Positions 12,137-49,231 of a DNA stretch of 64,000 nucleotides are shown here, piece by piece. Each line of letters begins with the position of its first letter. The first letter of the stretch is position 1. Origin of the DNA: Giardia intestinalis (Eukaryota). The translations under genes and the position numbers were made by a program. Under the pieces are notes generated by a model. The model saw only the letters and a list, made by a program, of their open reading frames with translations. It searched no databases and had not been told where the DNA came from. The stretch lies in the NCBI GenBank assembly GCA_000002435.2, contig CM018793.1, one strand, 5' to 3'.

Positions 12137-12622
12137 ATGCTGGCAGACGTCGTGGGCTTCTCAGAGATCCCCCCTTGCCCTGTTATGGATTCAAATGGTA
12201 AACTAACTCTTCCCAAGCCGCTCGAGCACTATGTCTCGGCGGCGAAACTCTCCCCCCGCAGGCGCCACAAAGGCCGTGAGCTCCTCCAGGAGGCGCTAAA
12301 CAAGGCCTGGGACTCCAAAAAGGAGCTCCAGGACCAAATGTTCAAGCTCTCCGTAAGGGCCGACCGCGACAAGCAAGAGATCGCCGAGCTCAAGGAAAAG
12401 CTTCGCCAGAGCGAGAAGCTGGAGTCTCTCCTTGCGGAAACGAGGCGCAACAACGACTATCTCTCGCAAGCGCTCACGAGAGCTCAGGAGAGGGAAACGG
12501 AGCTCCTAAAGGAACTGGAGGCCGCTAAACAGCAAAATGCGCGCCTTAACGACATGCGCGAGAGCCAGGCGCTTTATACACGCGACCTAGAGGCGGTTCT
12601 CAATAAGATAATGAGTAAATGA
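12137..12622 (+). CDS. Coiled-coil protein (element A specific)
   Basis: ORF 12107-12622; start reassigned to the ATG abutting CTCAAATAAAATG; heptad-rich sequence (ELQDQMFKLS...EIAELKEKLRQSEKLESLLAE). Confidence 0.4.
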   Translation: MLADVVGFSEIPPCPVMDSNGKLTLPKPLEHYVSAAKLSPRRRHKGRELLQEALNKAWDSKKELQDQMFKLSVRADRDKQEIAELKEKLRQSEKLESLLAETRRNNDYLSQALTRAQERETELLKELEAAKQQNARLNDMRESQALYTRDLEAVLNKIMSK

Positions 12623-12671
12623 TCCTAAATAGGCCTATATAGCTTGAATAAAGGAAATCAGGGCCGTTTAC

Positions 12672-13361: not shown

Positions 13362-13512
13362 CTAGACGGGTCTTTTTCTCAATATACAATTTCACTTTAA
13401 AATGCTTTGCCGGCGTATATTATAGTGTAACATAGCAAAGTAGTGTAAATAAGAAAAATGGCGCCAAGGACCTCATAGCGCCTGGAGGTTAAAGAAGTGT
13501 AAATCAGCTCAT

Positions 13513-13995
13513 TTACTCATCGCTTTCCTCCTGGAAGTCCTTCGGTATGAAGCCGTGCTTGTAATAGAAGTCTTCCAGGGCGAGGCAGGCCTCCAGGTGG
13601 TCGCGGGCGAGGTCGTGGCGTTGCTCCGAGCTGTAGACGATCCAATTGCCAAGCATGTCGCGCCGCTTGAAGATCTGGATCGCCTTCAGCTGGAGGAGCC
13701 CGTCCGCCGCGCTGAGAACGTCAGGAAGGAGCCTAGAAAAGAAGTTGCTGCACCGTTCTACGTATAGATCGATGAGCATCAGGCGGTTCTTGTTGATGCG
13801 GGCGATCTGGGCCGCCCGGAGCCCGTTGCGGCGGCGGAACGAGCTTTGGCGTAAACCCTTCCGCGGCACCCGTTCGGTCCGGAGGCGGTGGAGCTGCTTC
13901 GTGTACGCGCTGATCAGCTCCCAGAGGCGCCCCTGGGACTCTGCCGCGTCGCACACCAGGATGGCGGGAATGTGGCCGAAAGCTGGTAGGAACAT
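13513..13995 (-). CDS. Hypothetical protein (160 aa), conserved between elements A and B
   Basis: ORF 13513-14187 trimmed to Met65 (MFLPAFGHIPAIL), which aligns with the start of the B paralogue (MPYLPPFGFVPEIL); conserved GAAAGAAAAAG upstream motif. Confidence 0.45.
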   Translation of the reverse strand: MFLPAFGHIPAILVCDAAESQGRLWELISAYTKQLHRLRTERVPRKGLRQSSFRRRNGLRAAQIARINKNRLMLIDLYVERCSNFFSRLLPDVLSAADGLLQLKAIQIFKRRDMLGNWIVYSSEQRHDLARDHLEACLALEDFYYKHGFIPKDFQEESDE

Positions 13996-14067
13996 TTGAA
14001 GGCTTTTTCTTTCGATTTGAGAATCGAATTTAAAGTGTTTGCAACATATACGCCGCACAAAAAATAA

Positions 14068-16542: not shown

Positions 16543-16543
16543 T

Positions 16544-19500
16544 TCACAAGCTGTAGTTCTCGACCGAGCTCCTGGCCCAGTACCAGATCGCCACCCGCTG
16601 GCCGCCGCCAATCTTGCCGATGCTTTTATCATATGCAAAGCGTAGCGTGACGTTGATGTAGCTGTCATTGGAGTTGCCTTCGCGATAGTCGTTCCAGGCC
16701 ACGAAGACGCGGTCGTAGGACGTCACCCAGACGTCGTAGGGCACAATCGAGACGATGCAGTCGTTGCTCTTGCTGATGGCGTCGCTGGGGAGGCTGGACA
16801 TGGAGATCCGCATGAAGCCGTTGCCGTCCGTCGTCTGGCCGGGGATCCACTTCCGGACGAGGTACTGGTACTTCAGCTCTCGGCAGACATAGGTCAGCTT
16901 GTTTGACTGGGCGTTGAGCGTCGCGATGCTGTCCCGGTTCAGCCGGATCGAACTCTCAAAGCCGGAGACGGTCGACTCGAGCCTACTGAGCCTGCTCGAT
17001 GCGGAGCTCAGCGAGCCCTGGAGGTTGCTCACCGTGACTTTGAGGGAGGCGATCTGGTCCCGGTTCTGCCCAACGGACCTCTTGAGAGTCGTTACTTCGT
17101 CTGTCCATATGGCGATGGTATCTGCGTTGTTCTTGATCCTGGTCTCGTTAGCCCTAATTTTGCCTTCGCAATTGGCCACCCTTGTTGTAAGAGCTGATAG
17201 AGCGGTTTCTTGCGTCCTAGTCGTGTCCCAGAGCCCCCGTATGTTGCTCTCGGCGGCGTTGACCCGCGTCTCGAGGGCCGCATAGTCGGTTGTATTGCTC
17301 TTGAGGTCGTTTATGCTAGTCTTCATCTCAGAAATGTCGCTCTCGTTAGTCGCTATGCGCTCTTCATAACCAGCGAGTCGGCCAGACAGAGTGTTGTAAC
17401 GGTCCGATATCTCTGTAATAGTCACATTGAGTCTCTCGATGGTCGCCCGGTCCTCCTCCCTCTCCCTCTCGAGCGCTGCGACCCGGGCCGACAGACCTGA
17501 CACGTCCTGAATAACCGCAGAATCGTCCTTTGAACCCTCCTTGGACTCTAACGCATCGAGGCGCTCGGTAAGCCTTCTGATCAGCTCGTCTTGCGCCACA
17601 ATGCGCTCGGTGAGGAGCCTCCTCTGCTCGGCCGACCGCTCCTGCTCCTCTTCGATCTGGGCTTCCAAAGCATCGTTGCGGGCAGAGGTCAAACTGCTGA
17701 TGGCCTTAACCTGGTACTGCAGCTCCGCGACGAGCTCCCGCAGGTAGTTGTAGGCGCCCTCGAGCTCGGTCCGGATCCCGCTCATGTCTATGATGCCGCC
17801 GACCGGGTCTGTGAACGAGATCCCGTTCCGCTCGAAGAATTGGACAACGACTGTCATCAGGATCTCGATGCGGTTCCGGAAGTCCATGATGTCATTCTGG
17901 TTCTCGGTGAGTCTCTCGATCCGCTTGGCGTGGACCTTCGCCTCCTCCTGCAGCGCTTCGATGGCTACTTGGTCCTCTCCGGCGATGCTCTGAAGCACCT
18001 TGATGTGATTCTTCGCCCGGGCAGCCTCCAGATGCACGAGGGACACGTCCCGGTTGATGTGCGAGAACTCGTTCCAGATAAACTCGAAGCGGTAGAAGAG
18101 GTCGTCGGTCAGGAACTTGTAGATCCTCTTAAACTTGTAATCGTGCTCGTCGAGCCGGTTCTTCGCCTGGATCGCATAGGCAAGGCCTGTGGAGGCGACG
18201 GTCAGGATAGCCGCGTCCAAGGCATAGCCTACGGCCATGTTGATCACGTTGAGCTTCGATCCGATGCCGCCTGTGTTTCCGCCCTTGTTGATTTTGTCCT
18301 GGAGTTTCTTGTAGTCGTTGTCATCGGCCAAAAGCTTCGCCTTGAGGTACTTGACGGCCGCCTGGAGTTTCGTTATCTCGAGGTCGAGCTTCTTGTTGTT
18401 CCGCTCCAAATTCTGGATCTTGGTCTCGTGCTTCAGGGCCCGCTTGCCCAGATAACGCGTCTGGTGCGTGACACGGCCCTGCGAGAGCTTCTTGAGGTTC
18501 TTGATCTTCAGATAGCTGCCCCCGATCTTGTAATTGCCGCCGATGTGCTTGCGAAGTCCGTTGTCCTCGTCTCCGTCTTCGTCCTGGCCCTGCAGCTGGC
18601 GGTAGAGCCACATCGTCTGCTGGTTGACCGTGGCCGCCATGAAATCTGCCCGGGACACGCGGCCGTAGGGAGAAAGCTTCTGGTTGTTCCTGCCAGCCAG
18701 AGAGCCCCCGACCATCTCATAGAGGTACTGGATCTGCTGGAAGAGGGGCTGCTTGCGGAAGTCATCCTGGGAGATGGCGTTCCCTATGCCGATCTTGCCC
18801 TCCAATGCGTCAGGGATGAGATCGTTATCCCTGGTTTTCTTCTTCTTGAGCTTCCGAGGCTTCTTGGGCTTCTGCTCCTTCTTCTTCTTCTTGAGCAGCG
18901 CCTTCTGGTCCGCCATCGGTAAGAGCTCCTCTCGGAAGGCGTAGTTCCCCATCATCATCCACTGGAGGGCGACGATCTTCTGCACGATCGTGAGCCCCCG
19001 CATGTACTCGGACTTGTTCGTCGTGTCGCGCATGTACTCCTCGGGCTGGAAGTTGTTGTTAAAGCCGACGATCGGGGCCGCCTTCTTCATCGCCTTCGTG
19101 AGCTTCCCGCCGTTGAGGGCGATGTTGAAGATGCCCTTCGGCGTATTCTTGAAGCCGATGATCTCCTCCATGAACTTGACAAGAAATACCAGACACGGGC
19201 CCTTCAACGGAGACATCCCATCTAACATGTTTCCGTTGTAGTCTTTGATCTCGTAGTTGTGGGCATTGCAGTAGTACCGGAGAGCACTGGCCTTGTCTTT
19301 TTCGGTCATGAGCTGCGTCGCGCAATGGACGGTCTTCGGACCAAAATATCCCTGAAGACGATGAGTCAGATTTATGTTCAGATTGCTTCCCAAGAGAGCC
19401 CTCCGTTGATCGTCTCTCAAAGCATTACGCTCGCAGAACTCCTTGAGCACATTGAAGTAATACTCTGACGCAAAGCTAAGCTGATCGACGACCTTCTGAA

Positions 19501-19561
19501 GGCTCTCCTTCGTCACGAACTTCCCATCCAACTGCTCCGTGCGGATGATGAGGTTGTTCAT
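16544..19561 (-). CDS. Large coiled-coil protein (1005 aa) with conserved N- and C-terminal globular domains; possible virion fiber/attachment protein, element A
   Basis: MNNLIIRTEQLDG N-terminus, basic KKKKKEQKPKKPRKLKKKK tract, >300 aa heptad-repeat region, C-terminal beta-rich domain ending WYWARSS; paralogue 36214-39090. Confidence 0.55.
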   Translation of the reverse strand: MNNLIIRTEQLDGKFVTKESLQKVVDQLSFASEYYFNVLKEFCERNALRDDQRRALLGSNLNINLTHRLQGYFGPKTVHCATQLMTEKDKASALRYYCNAHNYEIKDYNGNMLDGMSPLKGPCLVFLVKFMEEIIGFKNTPKGIFNIALNGGKLTKAMKKAAPIVGFNNNFQPEEYMRDTTNKSEYMRGLTIVQKIVALQWMMMGNYAFREELLPMADQKALLKKKKKEQKPKKPRKLKKKKTRDNDLIPDALEGKIGIGNAISQDDFRKQPLFQQIQYLYEMVGGSLAGRNNQKLSPYGRVSRADFMAATVNQQTMWLYRQLQGQDEDGDEDNGLRKHIGGNYKIGGSYLKIKNLKKLSQGRVTHQTRYLGKRALKHETKIQNLERNNKKLDLEITKLQAAVKYLKAKLLADDNDYKKLQDKINKGGNTGGIGSKLNVINMAVGYALDAAILTVASTGLAYAIQAKNRLDEHDYKFKRIYKFLTDDLFYRFEFIWNEFSHINRDVSLVHLEAARAKNHIKVLQSIAGEDQVAIEALQEEAKVHAKRIERLTENQNDIMDFRNRIEILMTVVVQFFERNGISFTDPVGGIIDMSGIRTELEGAYNYLRELVAELQYQVKAISSLTSARNDALEAQIEEEQERSAEQRRLLTERIVAQDELIRRLTERLDALESKEGSKDDSAVIQDVSGLSARVAALEREREEDRATIERLNVTITEISDRYNTLSGRLAGYEERIATNESDISEMKTSINDLKSNTTDYAALETRVNAAESNIRGLWDTTRTQETALSALTTRVANCEGKIRANETRIKNNADTIAIWTDEVTTLKRSVGQNRDQIASLKVTVSNLQGSLSSASSRLSRLESTVSGFESSIRLNRDSIATLNAQSNKLTYVCRELKYQYLVRKWIPGQTTDGNGFMRISMSSLPSDAISKSNDCIVSIVPYDVWVTSYDRVFVAWNDYREGNSNDSYINVTLRFAYDKSIGKIGGGQRVAIWYWARSSVENYSL

Positions 19562-19622
19562 CTATTTTAATTTCGCAACCATTTAGAATCAGAATCTCGT
19601 TTCGGAAAATAAAATGGTGTAA

Positions 19623-20145
19623 ATGGCTACTCTCAAAGACCTTCTGAACACCAATCCAATCGGCATGAGCGAGGAGAACTACGCGCAGCTGCTGCGCTCC
19701 CTCGAGACCCTCAACTACGGCCAGCTGCGCCAGTACGTGCTGGCCCGCCTCAAGCCCCTCGTCGACAACGTCCGCAAGCATCTCCAGGAGGACCCTGTCG
19801 GCTCGATCGACCAGGTCCTCGACTTCCAGGACGCCTTCTGCACCAAGGAGCTGATCCAGACCGTCCGCTGGAACCTCGCGCAGTTCCAGGTGAACGCGAA
19901 GAACCCCCGCAAGGCGCCGGCCGTGCGCAGCAAGGAGGCGACGGAGCTCTCGTACGCGACGGACTACAGCTTCCGGCGCATCGTCTACCCGATCGTCGCA
20001 GACCTCGCGAAGATCCTCTACCTCCGCGCCGAGGAGGCGAACGTCCGGAACCCGAACAGCCTCGTGCGCTACATCCCGCTCCTTATCATGTTCAACCAGC
20101 AGAACGCAATCGGCTACCCGCCCCGCGTCGCCTTCCTCGTGACGC
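19623..20145 (+). pseudogene. N-terminal 174-codon fragment of element-A pPolB, truncated by insertion of element B
   Basis: MATLKDLLNTNP...RVAFLVTP aligns residue-for-residue with residues 1-176 of the intact pPolB at 39160; reading frame runs into the TIR of element B after codon TP. Confidence 0.85.
20140..20145. repeat. Target-site duplication GACGCC (left copy)
   Basis: GACGCC immediately flanks both ends of the 26,015 bp insert; the uninterrupted paralogous pPolB has a single GACGCC at the corresponding site (cgtGACGCCtgccgtc). Confidence 0.8.
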
Positions 20146-20627
20146 CAGTAGTATATATCCTTGTGGTGCCCACTTTCGTTTTTTTGGGCCTGCACGGGGC
20201 TGGGCCCAAAAAAACGAAAGCGTCCCCCACAAGTGCGTCTGCGTGTGCCGGTCCGCCCACTAGGCTCCCACACGCTGGCGCTCGTTTACCTACTTTTCAA
20301 CAGAATAAAAAACCTGTAAATTTTCAAAAAAAATCGCGGCCTCCCCCCGGAACCGCCCAGCGTGGTGCCGTGCACGCCGGGAGGAGACCGCGTTGTCCTT
20401 GGATGTGTGTGATGCGTTCGCGCCCGGTTCAGCTGCCGGCCAGCCTGGTCTGCTCCCTGCCCCCGGGCCCGCACGACACCGAAGTGCGACATACAGACAG
20501 CCCGAAAGCAGAAAGCAGGCCAGCGTTATTTTTTTTTTCTGGGAGGCGGCAGTCAGGAAGTGCAAACCATTCTGACGAATTGATTCTGATCTGATTAATT
20601 GATTCAGGGCGGGGAGGAAAATAAAAT
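20146..20627. repeat. Element B left terminal inverted repeat; reaches the start codon of the first gene
   Basis: Exact reverse complement of 45680-46160; inner end GAGGAAAATAAAATATG supplies the promoter/start of ORF 20628. Confidence 0.85.
20172..20219. other. Conserved 18 bp-stem hairpin 26 nt inside the TIR tip (CTTTCGTTTTTTTGGGCC / GGCCCAAAAAAACGAAAG)
   Basis: Perfect inverted repeat with a 12 nt loop; present in all three TIR copies (also 46087-46134 and 52157-52204) with a different loop in the diverged copy. Confidence 0.7.
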
Positions 20628-21074
20628 ATGACGGATGAGCATTTGGGTGGCGGCGACGTTCAACCTGATAGGGACGATGGCGACGCTGGTGTGTCTGGGG
20701 ATAACGGCGTCGTCGTGCAAGAAGACAGCGTCGATCATGCAGGAGATCCTGGACAGACAGAAGGCCCGCCAACAGCAGAGCCAGCCACAGTACCAGCAGG
20801 CGCCGACTCCCCCGCTGTACCAGACGAGCCAATGGATGAGTCAGAGCTACTAGCAGAGCTCGCGTCTGATAAGATTACCATGCCGATGATGGTTATCACT
20901 ATGGGAGGAAGGTTCTTCGACTGCAAGGACGCTGAGCTCACTGTCACGATGAAGGTAAACGACGAGACGATGGAAGGATGCTATGTCTTGATTGGAGATA
21001 CTGTTCAGGAGGGGGAGGATGGAATAAAGTTAATGGGGTTGGTGTTCAAGCGCAAGGACGTGCCGGCAGAGTGA
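20628..21074 (+). CDS. Hypothetical acidic protein (148 aa), first gene of element B
   Basis: ORF starts exactly at the TIR inner end with AAAATAAAATATG; D/E/P-rich N-half. Confidence 0.45.
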   Translation: MTDEHLGGGDVQPDRDDGDAGVSGDNGVVVQEDSVDHAGDPGQTEGPPTAEPATVPAGADSPAVPDEPMDESELLAELASDKITMPMMVITMGGRFFDCKDAELTVTMKVNDETMEGCYVLIGDTVQEGEDGIKLMGLVFKRKDVPAE

Positions 21075-21076
21075 AT

Positions 21077-22543
21077 TCACTTGTAGAAGAGCTGGAAGAT
21101 GGGGGCCCAGTCGCCCTCTATCTTGGCAGAGAAGGGCCTTGCGTCGACAGAGCCGTCGGGGTAGGTGACTATGTGGTCTGCGCGGAAGTGTAACTTGTTG
21201 GTCGGCTTTTCCAGCTCGTGCCACGCCCAGAACAGCGGGTTGATGACTTGGTAGCGGTCGTGGATGCGGCGGGCAGAGACGATGGGATATCTCTCGTGGT
21301 ACTCTTTGCAGTAGAGGTTGATGCGGCTGTCCTTGTTATACCAGACATACGGCGGAATCTTTATGCGCGTTGTAGGAGAGATCGCCTCATAGAGCTTGAT
21401 AAGATCCGTCTTCCTGATGTGCCAGGCAGTGATAAAGTCTGGCGTTATCATTAGCATGGTTACCGTGGTCATCAGAACGAGATCGTCTCCATCTAACCAG
21501 GCCGCGATATAGGGACCGCTTGGGTTAGGCCCTATTTCTTTCAAGAAGTAGTTGTTGATGTATTTGAAGATGTTGACCATGGCGGTCTTAGTGATGACTG
21601 TTCCGCGGAGCGACAGGAAGTACGGGTCCTTGTGGGGGTAGAAGCGTCTGACCTTCTTGCTTGTTACCTCGATATATGCGTCTTTGCCATATTCGAAGGT
21701 GAAGGTCGGCTCAAGGAAGAAAAAGTCAGGGACGCTCAGCTTGGCGACGGGCGAGTGCAGGAGGATGGCATGAGGCTTTTCGAAACGAAAAAACCCCTGC
21801 TTCTTTTCGTGTTCTGCAGACTCCGTGATGAAGAGTTCGAGATAGACGGGAGCGAGGGTGAATGGGCGGTTGTTTTGGTCAAGGATCTCTATGTCGATGA
21901 TTCGGCCCTCATTGATGCGGTGGTTAACGGCGATGTGGGGGTTGATGAGGGAGAAGTTGTTTGTGATGTGCATAACGCCAATGCAGGCCGGCATTGTCAT
22001 GTTGGAGTCAGACGTGCCGCAGACGTTCTTGCAGATGATCTGGAGATACTTGAGGGTGACGGGAGGATAGGGGATGTCTGAGAGGAGGATGCTCCGTTCG
22101 CCTTGCGGAAGGTTTCGGGAGAATAGTTGCTTGGTGGTTCCGAAGCCAAGTGCCCAGGCAGCCGACGGAGAGAGGTTGAGATTTATGAAGTGGTTCTCTG
22201 CTGTGATTGCTTGTGTTAGTATGAAACGAACAAAGCCATCCTCGGTAATGTTTATTTCGACGTTAGCAGATATGCTGTGTGAGATCAGGTCAGCAAGGTT
22301 CTTAGCGACTCCGTCGAATTCGAATAACGTCTGGTTGGCGGTTACGTCGGTAATGTTGAAGGCGCCGATGCTGTCGAATATAGAAAGCGGGGAGTATGCG
22401 CTAACGAGACTCATATAGTGGCCTGTCGGATAGTGAGAGAGGATTTCGCGGATCTTGTTGCTGTATATCGCATGGTTTACGAGACCCTTTCCTATATTTT
22501 TAATTGTTATAACACCTGTCTGCTTTGTCTCGAGTCTCAGCAT
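21077..22543 (-). CDS. Hypothetical protein (488 aa); candidate virion structural (jelly-roll/penton-like) protein
   Basis: Beta-rich composition, lower GC, position in the structural module next to the packaging ATPase; start abuts AATTAAAAAATAATG; no motif-level assignment possible by eye. Confidence 0.35.
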   Translation of the reverse strand: MLRLETKQTGVITIKNIGKGLVNHAIYSNKIREILSHYPTGHYMSLVSAYSPLSIFDSIGAFNITDVTANQTLFEFDGVAKNLADLISHSISANVEINITEDGFVRFILTQAITAENHFINLNLSPSAAWALGFGTTKQLFSRNLPQGERSILLSDIPYPPVTLKYLQIICKNVCGTSDSNMTMPACIGVMHITNNFSLINPHIAVNHRINEGRIIDIEILDQNNRPFTLAPVYLELFITESAEHEKKQGFFRFEKPHAILLHSPVAKLSVPDFFFLEPTFTFEYGKDAYIEVTSKKVRRFYPHKDPYFLSLRGTVITKTAMVNIFKYINNYFLKEIGPNPSGPYIAAWLDGDDLVLMTTVTMLMITPDFITAWHIRKTDLIKLYEAISPTTRIKIPPYVWYNKDSRINLYCKEYHERYPIVSARRIHDRYQVINPLFWAWHELEKPTNKLHFRADHIVTYPDGSVDARPFSAKIEGDWAPIFQLFYK

Positions 22544-22555
22544 TATTTTTTAATT

Positions 22556-23500
22556 ATGCCGCTCGATCTCTCGCTCAAGACTGCGTCTACCAAGGACGCG
22601 CTCGAGTTCCGGGAGAAGCGCTTCCCGGTCTCGAACAACTGCTTCATCCCGATCGTGGGTGTGACGGGCTCTGGGAAGACGACGATCATCATCAACCTCT
22701 TCCGTCTTCTCAATGAGATCTACCGCTACAGCCACATCATCTATGTCGCCGCGAACTACCGCCAGGACGCGACGCTCAGGGCAGCGAACCTCACCCAGGT
22801 AGTTCTCGAGGACTACGTGGAGTTCGAGCAGGAGCGCGAGCATACGAAGCACGTCTACACGGCGAGCACCGATCTGCTGGACGTGGCCATCATGAAGATC
22901 TACGAGCTCCAGGACCTCCACGCGAAGGCCGAGGAGCTCCGGGAGCAGAGGAGGCAGATAGCGAGGGCGATCAAGATCGCGAAGGACCAGCAGCCAGAGC
23001 TCCTCGAGGACCTTGTTGCCCGCTACATCACAATCACCGAGGAGATCGACTCCATAGCGCCGACCAGCGACGGCACGCGTCCGAAGGTCCTCCTCGCCAT
23101 CGACGATAACTCGGGTGCCAAGGCCTTCAAGGTCAACTCTGAGAACAACCTTGTGTACCGCCTCATCAGGGACAGGAGACACCACAACACCTCTGTCCTC
23201 GCCTGCATCCACAACCTCAAGGCCTTCCACGCGCCCTTCCGCATGCATGCGACGGAGTTCATCTTCACGGCAGGTCTCAACAGCCAGGCGCTCAAGGATG
23301 TTTACGAGGACCTGGGGAACATCTTCCCGATCATCAACGAGAAGGCCCAGGACGGCACGAAGGCGTGCGACCTCTTCTGCGGGCTCTACGACAAGGTGAC
23401 GGGCGTCTACCCGAACGACGAGAGCCGCCGCTACTACTTCCTCACCGTCTTCCGTAACGCAAGGGAGCTCAGGGAGAACTTCGACACTGTCCTCAAGTAA
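22556..23500 (+). CDS. FtsK/HerA-superfamily (A32-like) genome-packaging ATPase
   Basis: Walker A IVGVTGSGKTTIIINLF and Walker B KVLLAIDDNSG (hhhhDD); ~315 aa from the ATG at 22556 (ORF track start 22418 overlaps the divergent neighbour). Confidence 0.55.
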   Translation: MPLDLSLKTASTKDALEFREKRFPVSNNCFIPIVGVTGSGKTTIIINLFRLLNEIYRYSHIIYVAANYRQDATLRAANLTQVVLEDYVEFEQEREHTKHVYTASTDLLDVAIMKIYELQDLHAKAEELREQRRQIARAIKIAKDQQPELLEDLVARYITITEEIDSIAPTSDGTRPKVLLAIDDNSGAKAFKVNSENNLVYRLIRDRRHHNTSVLACIHNLKAFHAPFRMHATEFIFTAGLNSQALKDVYEDLGNIFPIINEKAQDGTKACDLFCGLYDKVTGVYPNDESRRYYFLTVFRNARELRENFDTVLK

Positions 23501-23506
23501 ATAAAA

Positions 23507-23896
23507 ATGCGTGCTCACACCCAGGCGGACGACTACGGTCGCGTCTACACTGTCTCACACCTCCCCTCCTGCGCTGTCCTGCCGACGGGGTCTCCTCCGT
23601 ATGCGCCTCCCCGCGTCGTGCAGGCCTTCAAGGATCCCCTTGCCGGCACGCAGGTTCCCTTCAACTCGAAGAACGACCCGTCCGTGCACCGCATCGTGAA
23701 GGCCCGCCGCTTCGCCTCCCAGTCGAACCTCATCCCCCTCGACTGCAATAGCAACGCAAGGCACATCCAGGTCCCCATGCCCTCCAAGACCCTGACCCAT
23801 GCGATGGCGAAGCGCATCGACCCGTCACTCGCAGACACAAAGAGGCGCACCGCAAAGATGGAAGAGGCCAAGATGCGCATGCGCACGAAGAAGTGA
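23507..23896 (+). CDS. Small protein with basic C-terminus (129 aa); possible core/DNA-binding protein
   Basis: Start abuts GTAAATAAAAATG; C-terminal KRRTAKMEEAKMRMRTKK. Confidence 0.35.
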   Translation: MRAHTQADDYGRVYTVSHLPSCAVLPTGSPPYAPPRVVQAFKDPLAGTQVPFNSKNDPSVHRIVKARRFASQSNLIPLDCNSNARHIQVPMPSKTLTHAMAKRIDPSLADTKRRTAKMEEAKMRMRTKK

Positions 23897-23916
23897 ACTC
23901 CTAGGAAAAAAAAATA

Positions 23917-24462
23917 ATGACAGCCAACGTTGACGTTCAGGCGATCGTCGCGGCGGTCCTCGAGAAGCTCAAGGAGCCTGCAGCTCCGAAGAGCGTCTAT
24001 GTGCCCCCGCAGGCCAAGCAGGCGAAGACGCGCATGAAGGAGGTCCCGATCACCGCCCGAGAGGACCCTGACATCGACCCCTACAAGGAGCTCCCCGAGA
24101 TCAACCGCGAGACCCACGAGTACATCTATTGCAAGAATGGGAGGTGGAGGGCCGTCCCCAAGCAGACCCCCGAGCAGATCAAGGAGCGCACGGAGAAGAT
24201 GCTCGAGTCGCGCCTCAGGAAGCGCGCCGAGGCCACCAAGAGGCTCGAGGAGAAGCTCGCCCAGATAAGGGCCGAGAAGATGGAGGAGAGCATGGTCGAG
24301 ACCGTGGCGCCCCCCAAGAGCGAGGAGGAGCACGAGTCGGGCGACGAGGGAGACCCGGAGCTCTCGAAGATCATCGCCGACCACCTCGCCGAGAAGCAGC
24401 GCAAGGAGAGCCATGCAGCAAACGTGTCAAGCGTGTTCGGCGTCTCGGTCACGCATAAGTGA
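23917..24462 (+). CDS. Charged K/E-rich hypothetical protein (181 aa)
   Basis: Start abuts GGAAAAAAAAATAATG; highly charged helical sequence. Confidence 0.4.
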   Translation: MTANVDVQAIVAAVLEKLKEPAAPKSVYVPPQAKQAKTRMKEVPITAREDPDIDPYKELPEINRETHEYIYCKNGRWRAVPKQTPEQIKERTEKMLESRLRKRAEATKRLEEKLAQIRAEKMEESMVETVAPPKSEEEHESGDEGDPELSKIIADHLAEKQRKESHAANVSSVFGVSVTHK

Positions 24463-24478
24463 ATGAAAAAAAAAAATC

Positions 24479-27097
24479 ATGGCGATCGCCATTAACCCCG
24501 ATGTCCGCGAGCTGGACTTCAGCGACAACGTCAAGGTCTCGAAGTTCATGCAGGACTTCTCGGACTTCAGGGCGAAGAAGTGGATCACCTACAGGCCAGT
24601 GAACGCGCCCAGCGAGAGCGAGCCCTTCTTCGGGGGGACGAGACAGTTCATTATCAACATGGGCACGGGTCACATCCTCGACACAATGTATTCTGGGCTC
24701 TGGTTTGAACTTTACTTCCAGAATAATAGTGATGTGGTGTTGTGGCCTATACAGGCTTCTCTTCCTCGCACTTCTTCAGCTTGGATCGAGTCGGTGACGT
24801 TCCAGCATTCGAAGGTGGCAGCCCACATAGATGAACGCCTCTGCGATTACAACGCTGTCAGCACCATCTTTATTCCCGCGAAAGACATCCTCAGTATGAG
24901 GCAGACCTTTTTCACTACGGCAAATCAGCAGTTTGCAGACAATAATATGTTCAATGATGCCGTAGCCGATGATATATATGGCAAGCTTATGCCTGTAGGC
25001 TCGTTGACTACTTCTCGCATATCCCAACAAACCTTTTCTTTCTTCATCCCGCTTCGTTATTTATCAACCATCTTCAATTCAGGCAGATACTTCTTCCCAA
25101 GCCTGCTTCGCGGTAATGGTGAGATGACTCTATCTATTCGCTCTGTTGCTGCGTCTCTTTCAGAGGTGTTTGGTGGTTCTCGCAGTTCTATGGCCATTTA
25201 TATGAATCCTAATTTAAATGATTACCTTTGGTCAACTGCCGCTTCTGACAAAAAGATTAACTGGGATGTTTGTATGTATAATATGAAGTTAGTTACGCTC
25301 TGTCTCGATAACGCTTTTCTTACCAAAGAGTACAACGCCTTCATTGCCAGCGGCCGCAAATTTATTCGCTCTTTCAAAGCCTATAACTACCAGTTCTACC
25401 AGGTCAAGCAGGGTTATAATCGAATTGAGATAGCGAACACCCATCAGTCGATATCGCACATTGTTCTTGCGTTCCAGGTGCCGTATTCTGTACGCGTCGA
25501 TGGTCGAGCTATTTCGATGATGGATAATCAGTCATTTGGTATTCAGAAAACAACAGCGGGCACAACAAGCCAAACGATTAATGCCAAGAACCAGGGCGCA
25601 TTTGTTCCGACACGAGCAAGACCTTCTATGACAGGTCACGCCGGTAATAATTATCAGCCAGCGCCAGACAACCCGTACATTTCAGCATCAAGTCCAAACC
25701 CTCCTTCTGGTACTCGCGCATTTGGTAGAAAGGCGTTTGATCTTGGTACTAGTATAATGTGCAAGATATGGGATAGTGCTAAAAATCTGAACTGGTCATT
25801 TTTAGCACAACCGACTCTTGCCCTTGCGGCCAGTGGCCTTCCTAAGTCAGTACAACCTCTCGTAACAGCAACAGCCAATATGTTAGTTCAGAGTTCCTTG
25901 CAAAGCGCCACTAGAGCTGGAAGTGTTAAAAGACCTGCGCCGAGAACGTCCCAAGAGAATGATTTGTTAAAGCTTCAAAGAAATAATGCCCAAAGCCTAG
26001 CTAGAGGTTTTATGGATCCAAAGAATCGTGATGTTATAGGGACGTTTATTGACGAATTTAACAAATCGACAGGCGGTACTCTTGGAATAACCGAATTTAA
26101 TGCTATAGCACATCAGTTCCTAACTATGAATAATGCCAAAAGTAATTTAACACAAAAACAAAAGGATGTTTTTACAGATCTTATGAATATGAAGAAACTT
26201 GATCCTGTCTCAATTAACTTGATAGCTTATTATGCAACAGATGATGAGAGTGGTCCGTCAGCCATCACCAATGACCAAGTGAAGAATTATCTTTTGAAAC
26301 ACAACATAGATGAAGCTGACATAGATGAGGTGACCGATATTATAGCACGTCATAATTTAGAAACGGCAGGGGTATCTGTCTCCCAGGGAAGACTTGCTTT
26401 AAACGGTTTGGAAATAGATACCAATACCCAGAAAGTCGTTGCCGAGACCATGGATCGAATATTCGGAAGCGATGATACGTTAAAGACTGCCTTTACTGAG
26501 AGTCAGAAGACGTACTTGGCAAAAATTCTCGCAGAGCTGACTGACCAGAACCACTTGGATCATCACAAGTTCTTTACGCAAATGTTCCCCGCCGAGCCAA
26601 AGCAACTCTTTGATCTCGGCATGCACGTTATCGAGAACCTTCAGGTGTACCGCGGGACCGGTAACGGTGAGACGGTCTTTTCAGAACCAATTAACGGAGA
26701 CATGTTCTACCACATAAGTAGGGAGGCAATGGGCGATTCTGCTGAGAACCATCCATTTTTCAGTCTTGAGAATTTCAACAAGGACATGGCAGTAATTGTA
26801 ATTAGTCTCAACACTTTCATGCGCGACGCTCACCACGAGTTCTGGGACGGGTTCAGCACGAACCGCGTTGCTGATCGTCTCTATGTGGAGTTCAATAATG
26901 AGGAGTTTGTCATTCCGGATCTGTCTAAGATTCAACCTTGGTTTGATGATATCGGTTACCAGGATAATTGTATCGGCCTAGACTGCAAGGTCTTCACGAT
27001 CTACGACAACATCTACTTCATCGACCGCGACAACAACCTGAACGTGTCCGACACGCTCCTGCCCCTCCAGGAGGGCCGCATTCCTGGGTCTGACTGA
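24479..27097 (+). CDS. Large N/S/T-rich protein (872 aa); candidate major capsid protein
   Basis: Largest structural-module ORF, immediately upstream of the integrase, start abuts GAAAAAAAAAAATCATG; the capsid assignment is inferred from position and size only. Confidence 0.35.
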   Translation: MAIAINPDVRELDFSDNVKVSKFMQDFSDFRAKKWITYRPVNAPSESEPFFGGTRQFIINMGTGHILDTMYSGLWFELYFQNNSDVVLWPIQASLPRTSSAWIESVTFQHSKVAAHIDERLCDYNAVSTIFIPAKDILSMRQTFFTTANQQFADNNMFNDAVADDIYGKLMPVGSLTTSRISQQTFSFFIPLRYLSTIFNSGRYFFPSLLRGNGEMTLSIRSVAASLSEVFGGSRSSMAIYMNPNLNDYLWSTAASDKKINWDVCMYNMKLVTLCLDNAFLTKEYNAFIASGRKFIRSFKAYNYQFYQVKQGYNRIEIANTHQSISHIVLAFQVPYSVRVDGRAISMMDNQSFGIQKTTAGTTSQTINAKNQGAFVPTRARPSMTGHAGNNYQPAPDNPYISASSPNPPSGTRAFGRKAFDLGTSIMCKIWDSAKNLNWSFLAQPTLALAASGLPKSVQPLVTATANMLVQSSLQSATRAGSVKRPAPRTSQENDLLKLQRNNAQSLARGFMDPKNRDVIGTFIDEFNKSTGGTLGITEFNAIAHQFLTMNNAKSNLTQKQKDVFTDLMNMKKLDPVSINLIAYYATDDESGPSAITNDQVKNYLLKHNIDEADIDEVTDIIARHNLETAGVSVSQGRLALNGLEIDTNTQKVVAETMDRIFGSDDTLKTAFTESQKTYLAKILAELTDQNHLDHHKFFTQMFPAEPKQLFDLGMHVIENLQVYRGTGNGETVFSEPINGDMFYHISREAMGDSAENHPFFSLENFNKDMAVIVISLNTFMRDAHHEFWDGFSTNRVADRLYVEFNNEEFVIPDLSKIQPWFDDIGYQDNCIGLDCKVFTIYDNIYFIDRDNNLNVSDTLLPLQEGRIPGSD

Positions 27098-27112
27098 GTG
27101 AATGGAATAAAA

Positions 27113-28141
27113 ATGGCGCTGCTCTCTGCGAAGGGCCCGGGCTACGTCGAGATGGACCTCGTCTACGTCAAGGACGGGGGCAGGGAGGAGAAGTACTTCG
27201 CGGCGGTCGAGGCGTTCTCGCGGCTCTGCTTCGTGCGGCAGCTCCCGGACCGGAAGGCGGCGAACCTCGTCCCGGTCGTCGACGAGATGCTCACGCACTT
27301 CAAGGCGAAGAGCGTCCGGGCGGACATGGAGTTCTCGGCGTTCGAGATCCTCAACCTCTTCGAGCGGCGGAGGGTCAAGGTCGACCTCGTGCCCTTCGAG
27401 GTCAGGGACTACTCGCGCCTCGCCACGATCAACCGCTTCTGCCGGTCCCTGCGCCACTACCGGATGAGCGGCGTCAAGCCGGGGGACATCGAGAAGCACC
27501 ACAACCGGGAGAAGCCGGACCACTACTACCCGCACAAGTGCACGGCGGACGTCACGTACGAGGAGAACGTCGCGGTGATGAACGCGAAGCACCGGAAGGG
27601 GATCCTGCCGCTCCGGGGCGGGCCCAGGGCAGACGCGGGCCAGACGGTCCACGTGCGGCTCCTCAAGGACGGGAAGTTCGACAAGGAGCGGCCGAAGTGG
27701 TCCCGGGCGCGGTTCCGGGTGCTCGGGGTCTTCCAGGGCCGCTACGCACTGTGCCGGGAGGGCGACAAGAGCGGCAACGTCATCCTCCGGCGCTTCAACG
27801 AGGTCGCCCCGGGGAGCAAGACGCACACGTACGCGGACGACCACGTCGAGGAGAGCAACCTCTACGTCGTCAAGCGGATCGAGGAGTGCACGGACCGGAA
27901 GAGCAACCCGGTCAGGACGCTCGCGGAGGCGAACAAGATGGACTGCTGGTACCGCGTGCGGATGCTCGACGACAGCCAGGTCTGGGTGACCGCGAACCAG
28001 GTCCGCTTCCAGTCGAACGAGCCGACGGCGGCGGAGCGGCGCTTCTTCGGGGAGAAGGCGGCCGACAAGCTCACCGTCATGCGCGCGACGAAGGAGGAGC
28101 TCGCTGCGAGCAGGAGGAAGTTCCCAGTAAATAAAAAATGA
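27113..28141 (+). CDS. rve-like (retroviral-type DDE) integrase, possibly DDN variant
   Basis: VEMDLVYV...YFAAVEAFSRLCFVRQL...SVRADMEFSAFEI...RLATINRFCRSL aligns with the retroviral IN core (WQVDFTH...VAVHVASGY...TDNGSEF...G.VERFN.TLK); third acidic residue appears as N; start at the ATG after GGAATAAAAATG. Confidence 0.45.
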   Translation: MALLSAKGPGYVEMDLVYVKDGGREEKYFAAVEAFSRLCFVRQLPDRKAANLVPVVDEMLTHFKAKSVRADMEFSAFEILNLFERRRVKVDLVPFEVRDYSRLATINRFCRSLRHYRMSGVKPGDIEKHHNREKPDHYYPHKCTADVTYEENVAVMNAKHRKGILPLRGGPRADAGQTVHVRLLKDGKFDKERPKWSRARFRVLGVFQGRYALCREGDKSGNVILRRFNEVAPGSKTHTYADDHVEESNLYVVKRIEECTDRKSNPVRTLAEANKMDCWYRVRMLDDSQVWVTANQVRFQSNEPTAAERRFFGEKAADKLTVMRATKEELAASRRKFPVNKK

Positions 28142-30459
28142 AACTGACGCACGAGACCCTGATCCGCTCGAACCCCGCGCAGATCCTCCTCCCGCGGTTC
28201 ACGGTCTCGCAGATCATGCGCAACGACCAGCAGGTCTCCTTCCGGATCTTCTTCACGGCGAACTACAACGCGTTCAAGGCCCGGGACTACCTAGTTGTCA
28301 AGTATGCCCAGCCGGACCAGGACGGTCTTCCGTTGACCGATGCGAACGGCTATGTGAAGTACTTTAAACCGGATACGGATCCGAAGATTCCTGCCAACGG
28401 ACTGGTGTTCGGCACGCTCCGGTATAACCCCGCCAACGACTCATATGACATCGACTGGACGCAAAGCACGGTTTCAGACGATCCGCAGCCGTCTGACATG
28501 CTGATACCTGAGCCCGTCGAGATTAGGGTGAAGAAGGCCAAGCAGAGCCGCATCCTAAAGTCCATCACTCCCACTGAAAAGGCGCTCTCCTCAGCCACGC
28601 TCGACTCGCGCAGCAAAACGCCCATCACAGACGAGTCTTCCAAGACAGACGATCAGCGCGAGGCTGAGGTCGTCGTCATGAACGTGGCCATCCCTGCACC
28701 CGAGTCTTATGCCCAAGTCCGCAAGGTTCACTATGAAGAATCGGTGCAGACTTACGCTTCCAGAATGGCCGACGTGCCCGACACTCCTCTTGGCACCATT
28801 GTATCATGCAATGCGCAGCTGACACCCAATGTTGATACGCCGCCCGAGAAGCAGAAACCAAAGGAGAAGAGGTATAAGCTAACGCCCCGGGGCAGGGTGG
28901 TTGCTGTGCGAAGCGATCGTCTCAACGAGCCGGCTCCGCTGTGGGTGCCAGACGGGATCAGAACGTTGCCACTCACATATGAGGGAGATGACACGGCCGA
29001 TAATCTCTTTCTTACGCCCACAAGGGTGGTTGATGGACAGAGGTTCACTTACTGGAACCCGTCTATGAAGTTCTACTTAAGGAAGTATAATGAAGACAAT
29101 GCCATGGGCAGCGACACTTCCTTCCCTCCGTCTCAATCATCGCAGGATCCGTCGTCGTCGACAACAGATGACCTTTCTAGTGAAATAATACTAGTGGCCG
29201 ATCCTACTGGGGGAGCGATTCCGTATTTCGAAAACGATGAGCAAAGAAACAAGTTTATCAAAGATCTAAGAAAGACACCAGGCGCCTATGCTAAGATACA
29301 ACGTGGTTTGAGTAAGAAAACATATGGATCTCTTGTCCAGGCTGACTATGACAACAGGGAGCATATCAGGGAGATGTTAGAGGAGTCGTCGATCGAGCGG
29401 GACATCCTCATTGACGGAAGCGTGATACATCTGGCAGATGAGCCCGATACGCCGGATTCGACGACGCAAGACAGTAGCGAAAATATCGACAGCGATAGCA
29501 GCGTCAATGTCAACGGCGATAGTAACATATCCGAGCCGCGCGGTCTGACTTCACAGTTACGTGTCGTTCACACGGCAAGCGACGTGGAAGAGATAACGGT
29601 CGACGATGAAGGCGGGATGGACGAGGATCTGGATGATGATGAGACGGTAATCGAAGATATAATTGAGGAGGAAGATGGAGAGGGTGAAGGAGTAGAAGAG
29701 AATGGAGATGACGACAACAATTTCGATGATATAGGCGGAATTACTGAACCGCCTGCTCAAGAGGATCCAGATACTCCTAACGATTTAGTGCCGCCTAATA
29801 ACCAAGATCCCGTTCTCGACCCTGAACCAGTCATACCCATGCGTGCCCACCTGCGACCGTTCAAGAGCCACTTCGAGCCGGGCTATGACACAGCAACCGG
29901 CGACTTCGTCTGGAAGGTCCGCCTTGGCTTCGATGGGGCGTTCGACTCGTTCGAGGACTATGTGCGTGTCTTTACCGATGCGATCTGCAAGCGCGTCCAA
30001 GAGGAAGCCTACATGGCCAGTCAGGGTCGCATGGTCGTCGATCCGAAGGAGATAATCGATGGCCTTGCTATGCTGGCTCAGAAGCGGCTCTACTTTCGCT
30101 CGAATCCGGGCTACGTCTATTGCTACTGGGACCATTGCTCGCCCCGCCTGCGCCGTCTTTTCCAACCGCCGCATTACTTCCGAGACCACTATAGCCGCCA
30201 CCTCTACTGGTACCTCATCTGCGGGACCGCAAACTGCACGGAGCTCAAGGACAACACGTTCCGCATCCTCATCGGCCGCCATGCATTCGTAGGACGCGCG
30301 GAAGAGATAACGATCGCCTCCCACGTCCCGATCACGATCCCCGGGAACTCCTTCTTCAACCCGATGAAGATCGAGATCAGGGACGAGAATGACGAGCTGT
30401 ACGAGCTTGAAACGCCGTACATCGTCGAGTGGACGTTCACGCCCCTGCGGGCGGCCTAG
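28138..30459 (+). CDS. Hypothetical protein (773 aa) with central acidic D/E-rich region
   Basis: Start abuts GTAAATAAAAAATG; long D/E/I tract (EDLDDDETVIEDIIEEEDGEGEG); conserved C-terminal domain. Confidence 0.45.
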   Translation: MKLTHETLIRSNPAQILLPRFTVSQIMRNDQQVSFRIFFTANYNAFKARDYLVVKYAQPDQDGLPLTDANGYVKYFKPDTDPKIPANGLVFGTLRYNPANDSYDIDWTQSTVSDDPQPSDMLIPEPVEIRVKKAKQSRILKSITPTEKALSSATLDSRSKTPITDESSKTDDQREAEVVVMNVAIPAPESYAQVRKVHYEESVQTYASRMADVPDTPLGTIVSCNAQLTPNVDTPPEKQKPKEKRYKLTPRGRVVAVRSDRLNEPAPLWVPDGIRTLPLTYEGDDTADNLFLTPTRVVDGQRFTYWNPSMKFYLRKYNEDNAMGSDTSFPPSQSSQDPSSSTTDDLSSEIILVADPTGGAIPYFENDEQRNKFIKDLRKTPGAYAKIQRGLSKKTYGSLVQADYDNREHIREMLEESSIERDILIDGSVIHLADEPDTPDSTTQDSSENIDSDSSVNVNGDSNISEPRGLTSQLRVVHTASDVEEITVDDEGGMDEDLDDDETVIEDIIEEEDGEGEGVEENGDDDNNFDDIGGITEPPAQEDPDTPNDLVPPNNQDPVLDPEPVIPMRAHLRPFKSHFEPGYDTATGDFVWKVRLGFDGAFDSFEDYVRVFTDAICKRVQEEAYMASQGRMVVDPKEIIDGLAMLAQKRLYFRSNPGYVYCYWDHCSPRLRRLFQPPHYFRDHYSRHLYWYLICGTANCTELKDNTFRILIGRHAFVGRAEEITIASHVPITIPGNSFFNPMKIEIRDENDELYELETPYIVEWTFTPLRAA

Positions 30460-30584
30460 CGTCGTTTACTTGCTGAGTAGCGACGCCTCTGCCTCGGCGC
30501 ACGCCTTGTTGAGCTTCAGGAGCGAGACGATTCCGCGGACCGCGGGCACCCTAGTAAACAGGCTCAGCACGAAGATCGTCAGCT

Positions 30585-31241
30585 CTAGTAGTAGAAGGAA
30601 TACTTTTTTCTGGCGGGCGACTTGATGCGGCGGGGCGTGTGCATCAGGCTCGACTCGATGATCGTGTTGAGGATGTGGTACTGCTGGGTGCTGTCCTCGA
30701 TGACGTGGCGCTTCAGCAGGTAGTAGCTCAGGCACGTGAAGACGACCTTGTGGCGGACCTTCGCGACCTCCTCGCGGTTCTTGCAGCTCTCCTTGTAGAT
30801 CCTCTTCGCGTGGTAGCAGAGCAGGTCGGCCATCGAGCGGATCTTCGCGTGGATGACGTCGTTGGAGAACAGGTCGTACGTCTTGAAGATGCCCGAGACG
30901 ACCTGACGGAACTCGATCATGCGCTCCTCCTGCTGGATGCGCTTCTTCGGATTCGTGTCGAGGCCCTTCAGAAACTCGGCGCCCGTGAGGGTGAGCTCCT
31001 TGAAGCTCTTGTCGTCCTCGAGGACCTGGCGGACGTTTTCGGGAATCTTCGCCACGTTCGTGTTGATATTCTCGAGCATCTGGGGGATCGAGGGCACGTT
31101 TACGAGCGTTTCCGCCCCGAGCATGGGCGATTCCTGCGGGATTACGCTCTTCGGGCGCGGCGGCGCCTGCTCCTCGTGGATGCCGGGCGTCATGACGTCG
31201 GAAAGGATAAGCATGTCCGCAGATTTAGCCGAAAACGCCAT
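30585..31241 (-). CDS. Hypothetical protein (219 aa)
   Basis: ORF 30585-31415 trimmed to Met59, whose ATG abuts GAAAAATAAAAAAATCATG. Confidence 0.4.
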   Translation of the reverse strand: MAFSAKSADMLILSDVMTPGIHEEQAPPRPKSVIPQESPMLGAETLVNVPSIPQMLENINTNVAKIPENVRQVLEDDKSFKELTLTGAEFLKGLDTNPKKRIQQEERMIEFRQVVSGIFKTYDLFSNDVIHAKIRSMADLLCYHAKRIYKESCKNREEVAKVRHKVVFTCLSYYLLKRHVIEDSTQQYHILNTIIESSLMHTPRRIKSPARKKYSFYY

Positions 31242-32007: not shown

Positions 32008-32607
32008 TCAGGTAAAGCGTATCTGGCAGGTTTCCATCGCCCTGGCCCTGCAGTAGGGGCATTTGGCGTCTACACGCATTAGCAGCTCCGCGCAGGAGCT
32101 GCAGACGCACAGATGCCCGCAGGGGACGAAGGCGTGCGTGCTCTGCTTATCTAAGCAGACGCAGCACTCCCCGTCGGGCAGCTGCACCCTCTTGACGGCT
32201 TTGGGGCGGCGGCGGCGTAGGGCGGCTTGCTGTCTCCTGATTATCGTTTGAGCCTTGGCTAAATCGAAACCAAGGCTTCTCGCTGCCCCTTCCGCCCTAT
32301 CAAGCTGCTCGTAGAGCTCAGATAGGGCGGTCCCCGCCGTTGTGTATTTGGCCAGGCGCTGCTCTAAAGAGCACTTCTCTTTCCTGGCCTGCGCGCGCTC
32401 TGCCCAAAGCTTTTCGCGGAGCCTCTTCACTTTGAGGCCCCGACGCTTCGCCTGGCTGCTCGCCATTGCGAGCAGCTCTTCGGCCGATCGGAGGAGGTCC
32501 AGCTCGTCCACCGTAGTGGAATCGAGCTGGAAATCCTCGTCCGGCGTTTGTGGGAAGCCCACAAAGCCGGGGAAGCCGATCATGCAGTCAAAAGGCGGAG
32601 TAGTCAT
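32008..32607 (-). CDS. RING-finger (C3HC4) coiled-coil protein, putative E3 ubiquitin ligase (element B)
   Basis: CCVCLDKQSTHAFVPCGHLCVCSSCAELLMRVDAKCPYCRA; paralogue of 12672-13361; conserved GAGAAAAAG upstream motif. Confidence 0.65.
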   Translation of the reverse strand: MTTPPFDCMIGFPGFVGFPQTPDEDFQLDSTTVDELDLLRSAEELLAMASSQAKRRGLKVKRLREKLWAERAQARKEKCSLEQRLAKYTTAGTALSELYEQLDRAEGAARSLGFDLAKAQTIIRRQQAALRRRRPKAVKRVQLPDGECCVCLDKQSTHAFVPCGHLCVCSSCAELLMRVDAKCPYCRARAMETCQIRFT

Positions 32608-33201: not shown

Positions 33202-33675
33202 TTACTCGTCGTAGCCCTCCTCGAAGAGGTCCCAGGCATGGTAGAAGCTCTCCAGGGCCGCGCACTTGTCGACGTGCTCGAGCTTGAGCGCCCGCCGCTT
33301 CTCCGGGTCGGGCTCGCGCCAGAAGGCCATCGAGCTGATCTTCTGGAAGGCCCGGAGCGCCCGGATCTGGAGGCGACCGTCCCGGGGCGAGAGGACGGCG
33401 GGGAGCAGCTTCTGGCCGAGGAGCCCCTTCCGCGCCATGTACAGCTCGATCATCTCCGCCCGCCAGCGGGTGAGGCAGCGGATCTGGCCCGCGCGGCGCG
33501 CGCTCCGCCTTCTGAACGCGCGGAGGGGGAGCCTCCCGCGCGGGCACTTATCGCAGCGCAGCCAGAACAGGTGGTCCGAGTAGAACGTGATCAGCTCCCA
33601 GAGCTTCCCCTGGGAGACGGAGGCCGGCTGGGCCAGGATCTCGGGCACGAAGCCGAAGGGAGGGAGGTAGGGCAT
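33202..33675 (-). CDS. Hypothetical protein (157 aa), paralogue of 13513-13995
   Basis: ORF 33202-34128 trimmed to Met152 (MPYLPPFGFVPEIL); shared ...WELI..Y...L..LR...... core with the A copy. Confidence 0.45.
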   Translation of the reverse strand: MPYLPPFGFVPEILAQPASVSQGKLWELITFYSDHLFWLRCDKCPRGRLPLRAFRRRSARRAGQIRCLTRWRAEMIELYMARKGLLGQKLLPAVLSPRDGRLQIRALRAFQKISSMAFWREPDPEKRRALKLEHVDKCAALESFYHAWDLFEEGYDE

Positions 33676-33775
33676 CGCCCTTTTTCTTTCCCGTCCGCAG
33701 AAGCCGATTTGAAGTGGTTTGCAACACATATGTTGCTTGGCCGTTCTGCAACACATATGCTGCCGCGAATAAATA

Positions 33776-49229: not shown

Positions 49230-49231
49230 AT

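Follow-up and report, generated by a model that had tools for sequence, protein, structure and literature searches.

Polintons, or Mavericks (polintoviruses, Polintoviricetes), integrate into eukaryotic genomes and share a protein-primed family-B DNA polymerase (pPolB), an rve integrase, an A32-type ATPase, a double-jelly-roll (DJR) major capsid protein (MCP) and a penton, together with long terminal inverted repeats (TIRs), 5'-AG...CT-3' ends and a 5–6-bp target-site duplication (TSD). All Polintons have pPolB and rve, and nearly all have a protease; Polinton-like viruses (PLVs) have a minimal module without a protease, and all virophages encode a cysteine protease (Yutin et al. 2015, PMC4642659). 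An adenain/Ulp1-like protease is typical of Polintons, not strictly defining. Giardia pPolB was included in a Polinton polymerase tree (PMC4642659), and Giardia genomes were among those screened by Bellas et al. 2023 (PMC10120064), where the 'Metamonada' MCP group consists of parabasalids (including Trichomonas vaginalis) and Streblomastix, without Giardia; our literature search turned up no description of Polinton capsid genes from Giardia. Here, we analysed a 64,000-nucleotide stretch of Giardia contig CM018793.1 (the window), in which positions 20628–31241 lie within a mobile element that we call element A. With a probability of roughly 80%, this interval is the morphogenetic module of an intact 26-kb Polinton/Maverick in Giardia lamblia WB, apparently lacking a protease.

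Element A spans 20147–46160 (26,014 bp) and encloses the whole interval. Its termini read 5'-AG...CT-3', the left end starting 5'-AGTAGTATATATCC (AGTAGT...), and they form perfect TIRs bounded by the same hexamer on both sides (Table 1). Such AG/CT ends and 6-bp duplications are typical of Polintons. The hexamer is found once at the intact homologous site in element A's own polB gene (39677–39682), where the uninterrupted target CTCGT-GACGCC-TGCCG is kept at the equivalent place, and the terminal 14-mer is restricted to element ends. Element A interrupts the protein-primed polymerase gene of a relative, element B, in a textbook nested integration. This nesting, the perfect TIRs and the intact open reading frames (ORFs) suggest that the insertion is recent and that the element was recently mobile. 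A palindrome with 18-nt arms, CTTTCGTTTTTTTGGGCC...GGCCCAAAAAAACGAAAG, and a 12-nt spacer occupies 20173–20220, is mirrored in the right TIR at 46087–46134, sits ~27 nt inside each terminus and is kept with changes in the end of element B (52149–52234); it might serve replication or be recognised by the integrase.

The host is Giardia lamblia ATCC 50803 (WB), the 773-aa protein of the module being 100% identical to XP_001707478.1 / GL50803_25075, and all module genes are present, sequence-identical, on a 4.0-Mb record of the WB reference, where they are labelled 'hypothetical protein'. Ordinary host genes flank the mobile DNA, encoding an XPD-type helicase, an Alg13-like glycosyltransferase, a Glu/Gln-tRNA synthetase, TBCC and SF-assemblin/beta-giardin. 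These eukaryotic genes and the identity to Giardia led us to reject an origin of the window from bacteria or phages; a megablast search of the region against a phage collection gave no match, and Rfam and tRNA scans found nothing.

An earlier note on this DNA, made from the letters alone, had listed ORFs of 148, 488, 129, 181, 872, 773 and 219 aa and had called the ATPase and the integrase evident. ORFs of 148, 488, 129, 181, 872, 773 and 218/276 aa are present where it placed them. The ATPase matches Pox_A32 (E=1.1e-5, 25.5 bits, curated cut-off 22.8) and contains the Walker A motif GVTGSGKTT and the Walker B motif LLAIDD; its 314-aa start is that of the RefSeq annotation and of the relatives. 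For the integrase, the window copy gives an rve match of E=6e-4, which falls short of the Pfam cut-off, and all five orthologues tested match rve (best E=6.6e-5), with the conserved residues D15 and D71 falling within the matched region; its profile matched no solved integrase in the PDB. The Pfam match, taken together with the TSD, argues for its assignment as an integrase.

The two capsid proteins were recognised from their predicted folds, as neither candidate has a Pfam or PDB match, whether searched as a single sequence or as a profile. For the 488-aa protein, with 34 homologues at identities down to 32%, an AlphaFold model built from their alignment is confident (pLDDT 82.7, pTM 0.79). 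Compared with known structures, it matches P1v1 (score 9.3) and P1 (8.4) of Paramecium bursaria chlorella virus 1 (PBCV-1), the mavirus penton (8.6), a fowl adenovirus penton (7.4), VP14 of Singapore grouper iridovirus (SGIV; 7.0) and the Sputnik minor virion protein (6.9). Similarly, a Foldseek search against BFVD returned 16 matches at E ≤ 1e-3, including the mavirus minor capsid protein (6e-7), adomavirus LO5, Tetraselmis viridis virus S1 proteins and several giant-virus proteins; Foldseek TM-scores were low (0.15–0.38), as they would be if the jelly-roll domain alone is shared. The modelled fold establishes the 488-aa protein as the penton.

This protein had also been picked up as a protease candidate, through an H...D/E...Q...C regular-expression match in HYPTGH...LQIICKNVCG, which was rejected because the modelled fold is a jelly roll and a distant 507-aa orthologue lacks the Q/C motif. 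By eye, the penton resembles the 773-aa protein near the C-terminus of the latter (IDIEILDQNN...YLELF versus IEIRDEND...IVEWTF), but hhalign gave a probability of 0.1% and the idea was dropped; profile comparison found the MCP and the penton to be unrelated. In a published proteomic data set (PMC4751611), the penton (GL50803_16693, reported there as unannotated) was up 1.55- to 1.9-fold with host cells or host secretions, being the top up-regulated protein with host secretions and among the top ones on host-cell contact. According to the supplementary table, a single unique peptide seems to underlie its identification; the MCP and four other queried module genes are absent from that data set. 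We take this as a weak hint of expression.

The 872-aa protein has 38 homologues, the named ones all from Giardia (isolates P15, DHA2 and GS_B). Since three metagenomic homologues of 505–509 aa are colinear with residues 1–340 and 700–872, residues 341–699 represent an insertion into a core of ~510 aa. The insertion measures 359–510 aa in Giardia-type homologues versus 21 aa in the short forms, and its mean identity is 23%, whereas that of each core part is 76%. AlphaFold on the full 872-aa protein performed poorly (pLDDT 47.6), with beta strands running through both core parts and helices across 363–699. The best fold matches were P3 of PRD1 (8.0) and the faustovirus MCP (7.7), followed by a poxvirus D13-like scaffold (7.3), p72 of African swine fever virus (7.0, 240 residues aligned) and the PBCV-1 MCP (6.8); further matches include FLiP, PM2, melbournevirus, mavirus (6.1, 207 aligned) and the adenovirus hexon (5.5, 258 aligned). 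Of the top 32 matches, at least ten are DJR capsid proteins, the two best among them, and several alignments, at 185–258 residues, are about two jelly rolls long. Because the fold matches have this length and the genes for the penton and the A32 ATPase adjoin, the 872-aa protein is very probably a DJR MCP. As judged from the predicted strand order, the insertion would lie in a loop of the second jelly roll and be exposed on the capsid surface.

A profile built from a four-sequence full-length alignment of short and long forms retrieved 11 matches from 1.84 billion representative proteins, all of them members of the same family or fragments, and a scan of IMG/VR with the MCP alignment found no relative. 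The earlier note had described the MCP as not recognisable by eye and had named the 872-aa N/S/T-rich protein as a positional candidate only. The protein indeed escapes recognition without fold prediction, which now adds a DJR assignment to its position; the N/S/T-rich character comes from the lineage-specific ~360-aa insertion, not from the capsid core. A fragment of this gene (GL50803_16690) had unknowingly been chosen as an assemblage-specific PCR marker candidate, with 68% identity between GS and WB (PMC3429382), a choice that fits fast evolution of the MCP gene.

The pattern seen in the MCP recurs in the 773-aa protein, in which ~110 aa at the N-terminus and ~210 aa at the C-terminus are conserved around a hypervariable acidic middle, with family identities of 66%, 71% and 27%, respectively. 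Neither the protein nor its family profile matches Pfam or the PDB. Its conserved C-terminal domain has the invariant residues D641, Q648, C662, H684 and C695, and the protein is possibly a vertex- or spike-associated protein, a cement protein or a protease.

Conservation among the relatives of element A speaks for selection on the module. These keep the order penton, ATPase, 129, ~190, MCP, integrase, 710–783, ~240, RING and so on, and gene order and intact ORFs persist in copies ~50% diverged, from several Giardia assemblages and metagenomes. Two compact relatives, L001 and L005, are metagenomic ENA contigs (ERZ27287853 k141_148882 and ERZ27273579 contig_3874_polypolish), the latter from a sample that also contains a Giardia-type copy, L008. 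Within the 11.6–11.8 kb examined of each ~19-kb contig, the short-form core comprises the MCP (505–508 aa), the integrase, a 319–333-aa homologue of the 773-aa protein (333 aa and without the middle in L001), a ~200-aa homologue of the 218-aa protein, pPolB, the penton and the ATPase; the RING, 809-aa and 958-aa genes are absent from the part examined. The MCP gene of L001 and L005 starts within 36–243 nt of one contig end, which may be a genome terminus or reflect a permuted assembly.

None of these analyses found a protease. Pfam searches at E ≤ 10 of all element A ORFs, with the large proteins and the first 567 aa of pPolB included, returned no peptidase family (C5 adenain, C48 Ulp1 or other). 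Also, a phmmer search with a hand-typed adenovirus-2 protease sequence, run against stop-to-stop six-frame segments of element A and related loci, gave a best E=0.16 in a nonsense frame. The conserved gene order of the relatives includes no extra gene that could be a protease, and the examined part of the short-form relatives has none. An unnoticed separate gene is unlikely in element A, because the gaps between its main ORFs are ~770 nt or shorter. For the 773-, 218-, 181-, 148-, 129- and 809-aa proteins and the N-terminal 560 aa of pPolB, the test was made at the sequence level only. The missing signature is a real observation and not a chance effect; given that no peptidase matched and that the relatives' gene order provides no extra candidate, the element appears to have a minimal module, with the protease probably truly absent.

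The earlier note was thus right that no adenain-type protease is discernible, and one of the explanations it offered, highly divergent capsid proteins, agrees with the MCP and penton found by fold; its suggestion of a different virion architecture is not supported by these folds. It had also proposed that hits to an MCP, a penton and adenain would mark a conventional Polinton. Two of the three were found and adenain was not, and for this reason we do not regard element A as a fully conventional Polinton.

Judging from its genes, element A would form virions in which the penton occupies the twelve vertices and the DJR MCP assembles into trimeric, pseudo-hexameric capsomers, with the A32/FtsK-type ATPase packaging the genome. 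In the Giardia lineage, a hypervariable helical domain of 360–510 aa, inserted in the ~510-aa MCP core, would decorate the capsid exterior. The module also holds genes for two small conserved proteins (129 and 181 aa), two core-conserved proteins (773 and 218 aa) and the putative rve integrase. The element would replicate via its own protein-primed polymerase and be integrated by the rve integrase, producing the 6-bp duplication. Element A would therefore combine a minimal module of MCP, penton and ATPase, apparently without an adenain-type protease, with the Polinton-defining pPolB and integrase.

Several observations weigh against this interpretation. Neither virions nor episomal genomes have been observed, and the sole evidence of expression is the weak, single-unique-peptide identification of the penton. 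The capsid proteins have no sequence-level link to any known MCP or penton, the rve match is weak, falling under the curated cut-off with an integrase profile that finds no PDB match, and the absence of a protease was read from sequence methods only. A maturation protease may therefore be present and too divergent for such methods, which would complete a conventional four-gene module; it could reside in the C-terminal domain of the 773-aa protein, in the 809-aa Cys-rich protein, in the N-terminal 560 aa of pPolB or in a small orphan ORF. That the MCP and penton of the same element were likewise invisible to every sequence method and found by fold only speaks for such a hidden enzyme, as do the five invariant residues of the 773-aa family and the presence of a protease in nearly all Polintons (PMC4642659). 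We consider it unlikely in view of the empty peptidase search at E ≤ 10, the lack of a PDB match for the 773-aa family profile and the short-form relatives, which show no protease either in the part examined; additionally, the GYVYCYW surroundings of C662 look, by eye, unlike those of a papain- or adenain-type nucleophile.

It is also possible that element A is now a transposon only, forming no virions, its capsid genes being either co-opted or relics. Nearly all known Polintons are integrated copies (PMC4642659), our literature search found no report of Giardia DNA virus particles, and the neighbouring element B persists though its whole morphogenetic module has been lost. We find this reading doubtful, since the module ORFs of element A are intact and syntenic, with cores conserved across the ~50%-diverged copies, and conserved cores bearing hypervariable insertions are in keeping with a structural protein exposed at the surface; in addition, the perfect TIRs and intact TSD point to recent mobility. 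Far less probable is that the 872-aa protein is some other beta-sandwich protein and that the virion has a non-DJR architecture or does not exist at all, considering the dominance of DJR capsid proteins at the top of the fold matches, the A32 ATPase and a genuine penton, sensible only with a DJR capsid, encoded ~2 kb away.

Compared with described systems, element A carries the defining features of a Polinton/Maverick: pPolB, rve, TIRs with a TSD, an A32 ATPase, a DJR MCP and a single-jelly-roll penton, the last two as predicted folds. It differs from Polintons in having no detectable adenain-type protease, in its hexon-sized MCP, which contains the 360–510-aa insertion and resembles no other MCP in sequence, and in its length of 26 kb, against the 15–20 kb quoted for Polintons (PMC3511435). 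Also, ~10 kb of element A are taken up by accessory genes, encoding a deoxynucleoside kinase (dNK), a RING E3, an ankyrin protein, a 958-aa coiled-coil protein and the 809-aa Cys-rich protein; the last has no match in the PDB.

Like the PLVs (TsV-N1/TVS1 and the PgVV group), element A has a minimal module in which MCP, penton and ATPase are accompanied by no discernible maturation protease (PMC4642659), and its penton model matches Tetraselmis viridis virus S1 proteins. It differs from them in that PLVs lack rve, with one exception, and mostly lack pPolB, whereas element A has both in addition to TIRs and a TSD; its MCP profile found only its own family, whereas PLVs are marked by a PgVV/TVS1-like MCP that sequence searches recognise. 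Tectiviruses, too, have the minimal arrangement of MCP, penton and ATPase without an adenain-type protease. Mavirus-type virophages (Maveriviricetes) are set apart by the cysteine protease present in all virophages (PMC4642659) and by their MCP, that of element A being ~370 aa longer and not of virophage type, and nothing suggests that element A depends on a giant virus. The Metamonad Maverick MCP group (PMC10120064) belongs to the same host supergroup, its capsid genes having likewise long been overlooked through divergence; it was reported from parabasalids and Streblomastix, whereas the Giardia MCP profile stays within its own family. In contrast to the adenovirus hexon and penton base system, the insertion in the element A MCP is a single, mostly helical block, adenain is missing and integration would proceed via rve.

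Giardia is both an important parasite of humans and a reference 'minimal' eukaryote. To our knowledge, only double-stranded RNA viruses are known for G. lamblia. Once the MCP, penton, ATPase and integrase are recognised, what was a set of orphan genes becomes an identifiable endogenous DNA virus, and capsid-bearing Polintons are extended to diplomonads. The pairing of Polinton replication and integration genes with a PLV-like, protease-less module bears on whether the protease was gained late or lost repeatedly (PMC4642659). The MCP and the 773-aa protein, each with conserved cores and a hypervariable insertion, are candidate surface-exposed, fast-evolving parts of the virion. A more speculative reading, less likely than not, is that G. 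lamblia harbours a Polinton-class DNA virus that is active and forms virions, with protease-free maturation; every capsomer would display a large, hypervariable helical domain, and the 773-aa protein may be a second variable component. If this is true, such decoration of the capsid would be a strategy so far undescribed in Polintons, and a possible handle for studies of host range or immune evasion and for a DNA vector in Giardia.

Table 1 Coordinates of features in element A (window positions)
Feature	Position	Strand	Basis or remark
Left TSD copy GACGCC, 6 bp	20141–20146		Same hexamer at both element A ends
Left TIR, 485 nt, perfect	20147–20631	+	First mismatch at offset 485
148-aa ORF, N-terminal half acidic and low-complexity	20628–21074	+	Poorly conserved in relatives; no family match
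Penton (minor capsid, vertex protein), 488 aa, GL50803_0016693, jelly-roll base and C-terminal domain	21077–22543	-	Fold
A32/FtsK-HerA-type packaging ATPase, 314 aa, GL50803_0025071	22556–23500	+	Pox_A32
129-aa protein, basic C-terminus, GL50803_002633	23507–23896	+	Highly conserved in L008 and L009; no family match
181-aa conserved protein, helical by eye, GL50803_002631	23917–24462	+	No family match above noise
Probable MCP, 872 aa, GL50803_0016690; DJR core aa 1–340 and 700–872	24479–27097	+	Fold
MCP insertion, aa 341–699, hypervariable, mostly helical	25499–26575	+	Homologue alignment, predicted helices
rve integrase (putative), 342 aa, GL50803_0034151	27113–28141	+	Weak rve match
773-aa core-conserved protein, GL50803_25075	28138–30459	+	Conserved N/C parts flank acidic middle
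218-aa conserved protein, helical by eye, GL50803_0092651	30585–31241	-	No family match; core common to short-form relatives
C3HC4 RING protein	32008–32607	-	2.9e-13; accessory, unusual for Polinton
Protein-primed family-B DNA polymerase, 1198 aa	39160–42756	+	Pfam DNA_pol_B_2 (PF03175) E=5e-37; outside 20628–31241
Deoxynucleoside kinase	42763–43815	-	PF01712 1.4e-15; accessory, unusual for Polinton
Ankyrin-repeat protein	44840–45679	-	93/186-nt tandem array at 45011–45586; accessory, unusual for Polinton
Right TIR, 485 nt	45676–46160	-	Perfect match to left TIR
Right TSD copy GACGCC	46161–46166		Direct duplicate of left copy

Besides the module, element A encodes the RING protein, the 809-aa Cys-rich protein, the 958-aa coiled-coil protein, pPolB, dNK, a 198-aa protein and the ankyrin-repeat protein. 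A virion-core or DNA-binding role for the 129-aa protein would be only a guess.

Element B (11497–20146 and 46167–52230) is an older relative of element A, with its polB split by element A. Its genes encode a RING protein, an 824-aa protein, a 1005-aa coiled-coil protein, pPolB, dNK and a 198-like protein, which are 44–83% identical in amino acids to those of element A, and its right end has the same terminal 14-mer (52217–52230). Within the window, element B has neither a left terminus nor a morphogenetic module, and it looks like a truncated, non-autonomous copy.

The whole mobile region is bracketed by an inverted duplication of 2,278 nt, 100% identical, at 9219–11496 and 52358–54635. It carries the last 71 codons of a host 985-aa DUF4485 gene and also a polB fragment (aa ~517–600), at 11410–11617 and 52360–52444; it could be a recent rearrangement tied to element insertion, or an assembly artefact. 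Directly upstream of the 809-aa gene of element A and the 824-aa gene of element B lie small minus-strand ORFs (33202–33750 and 13513–14060, respectively), which have no Pfam match. At 39% amino-acid identity over 179 aa between the two copies, this ORF is probably a real additional gene of the element.

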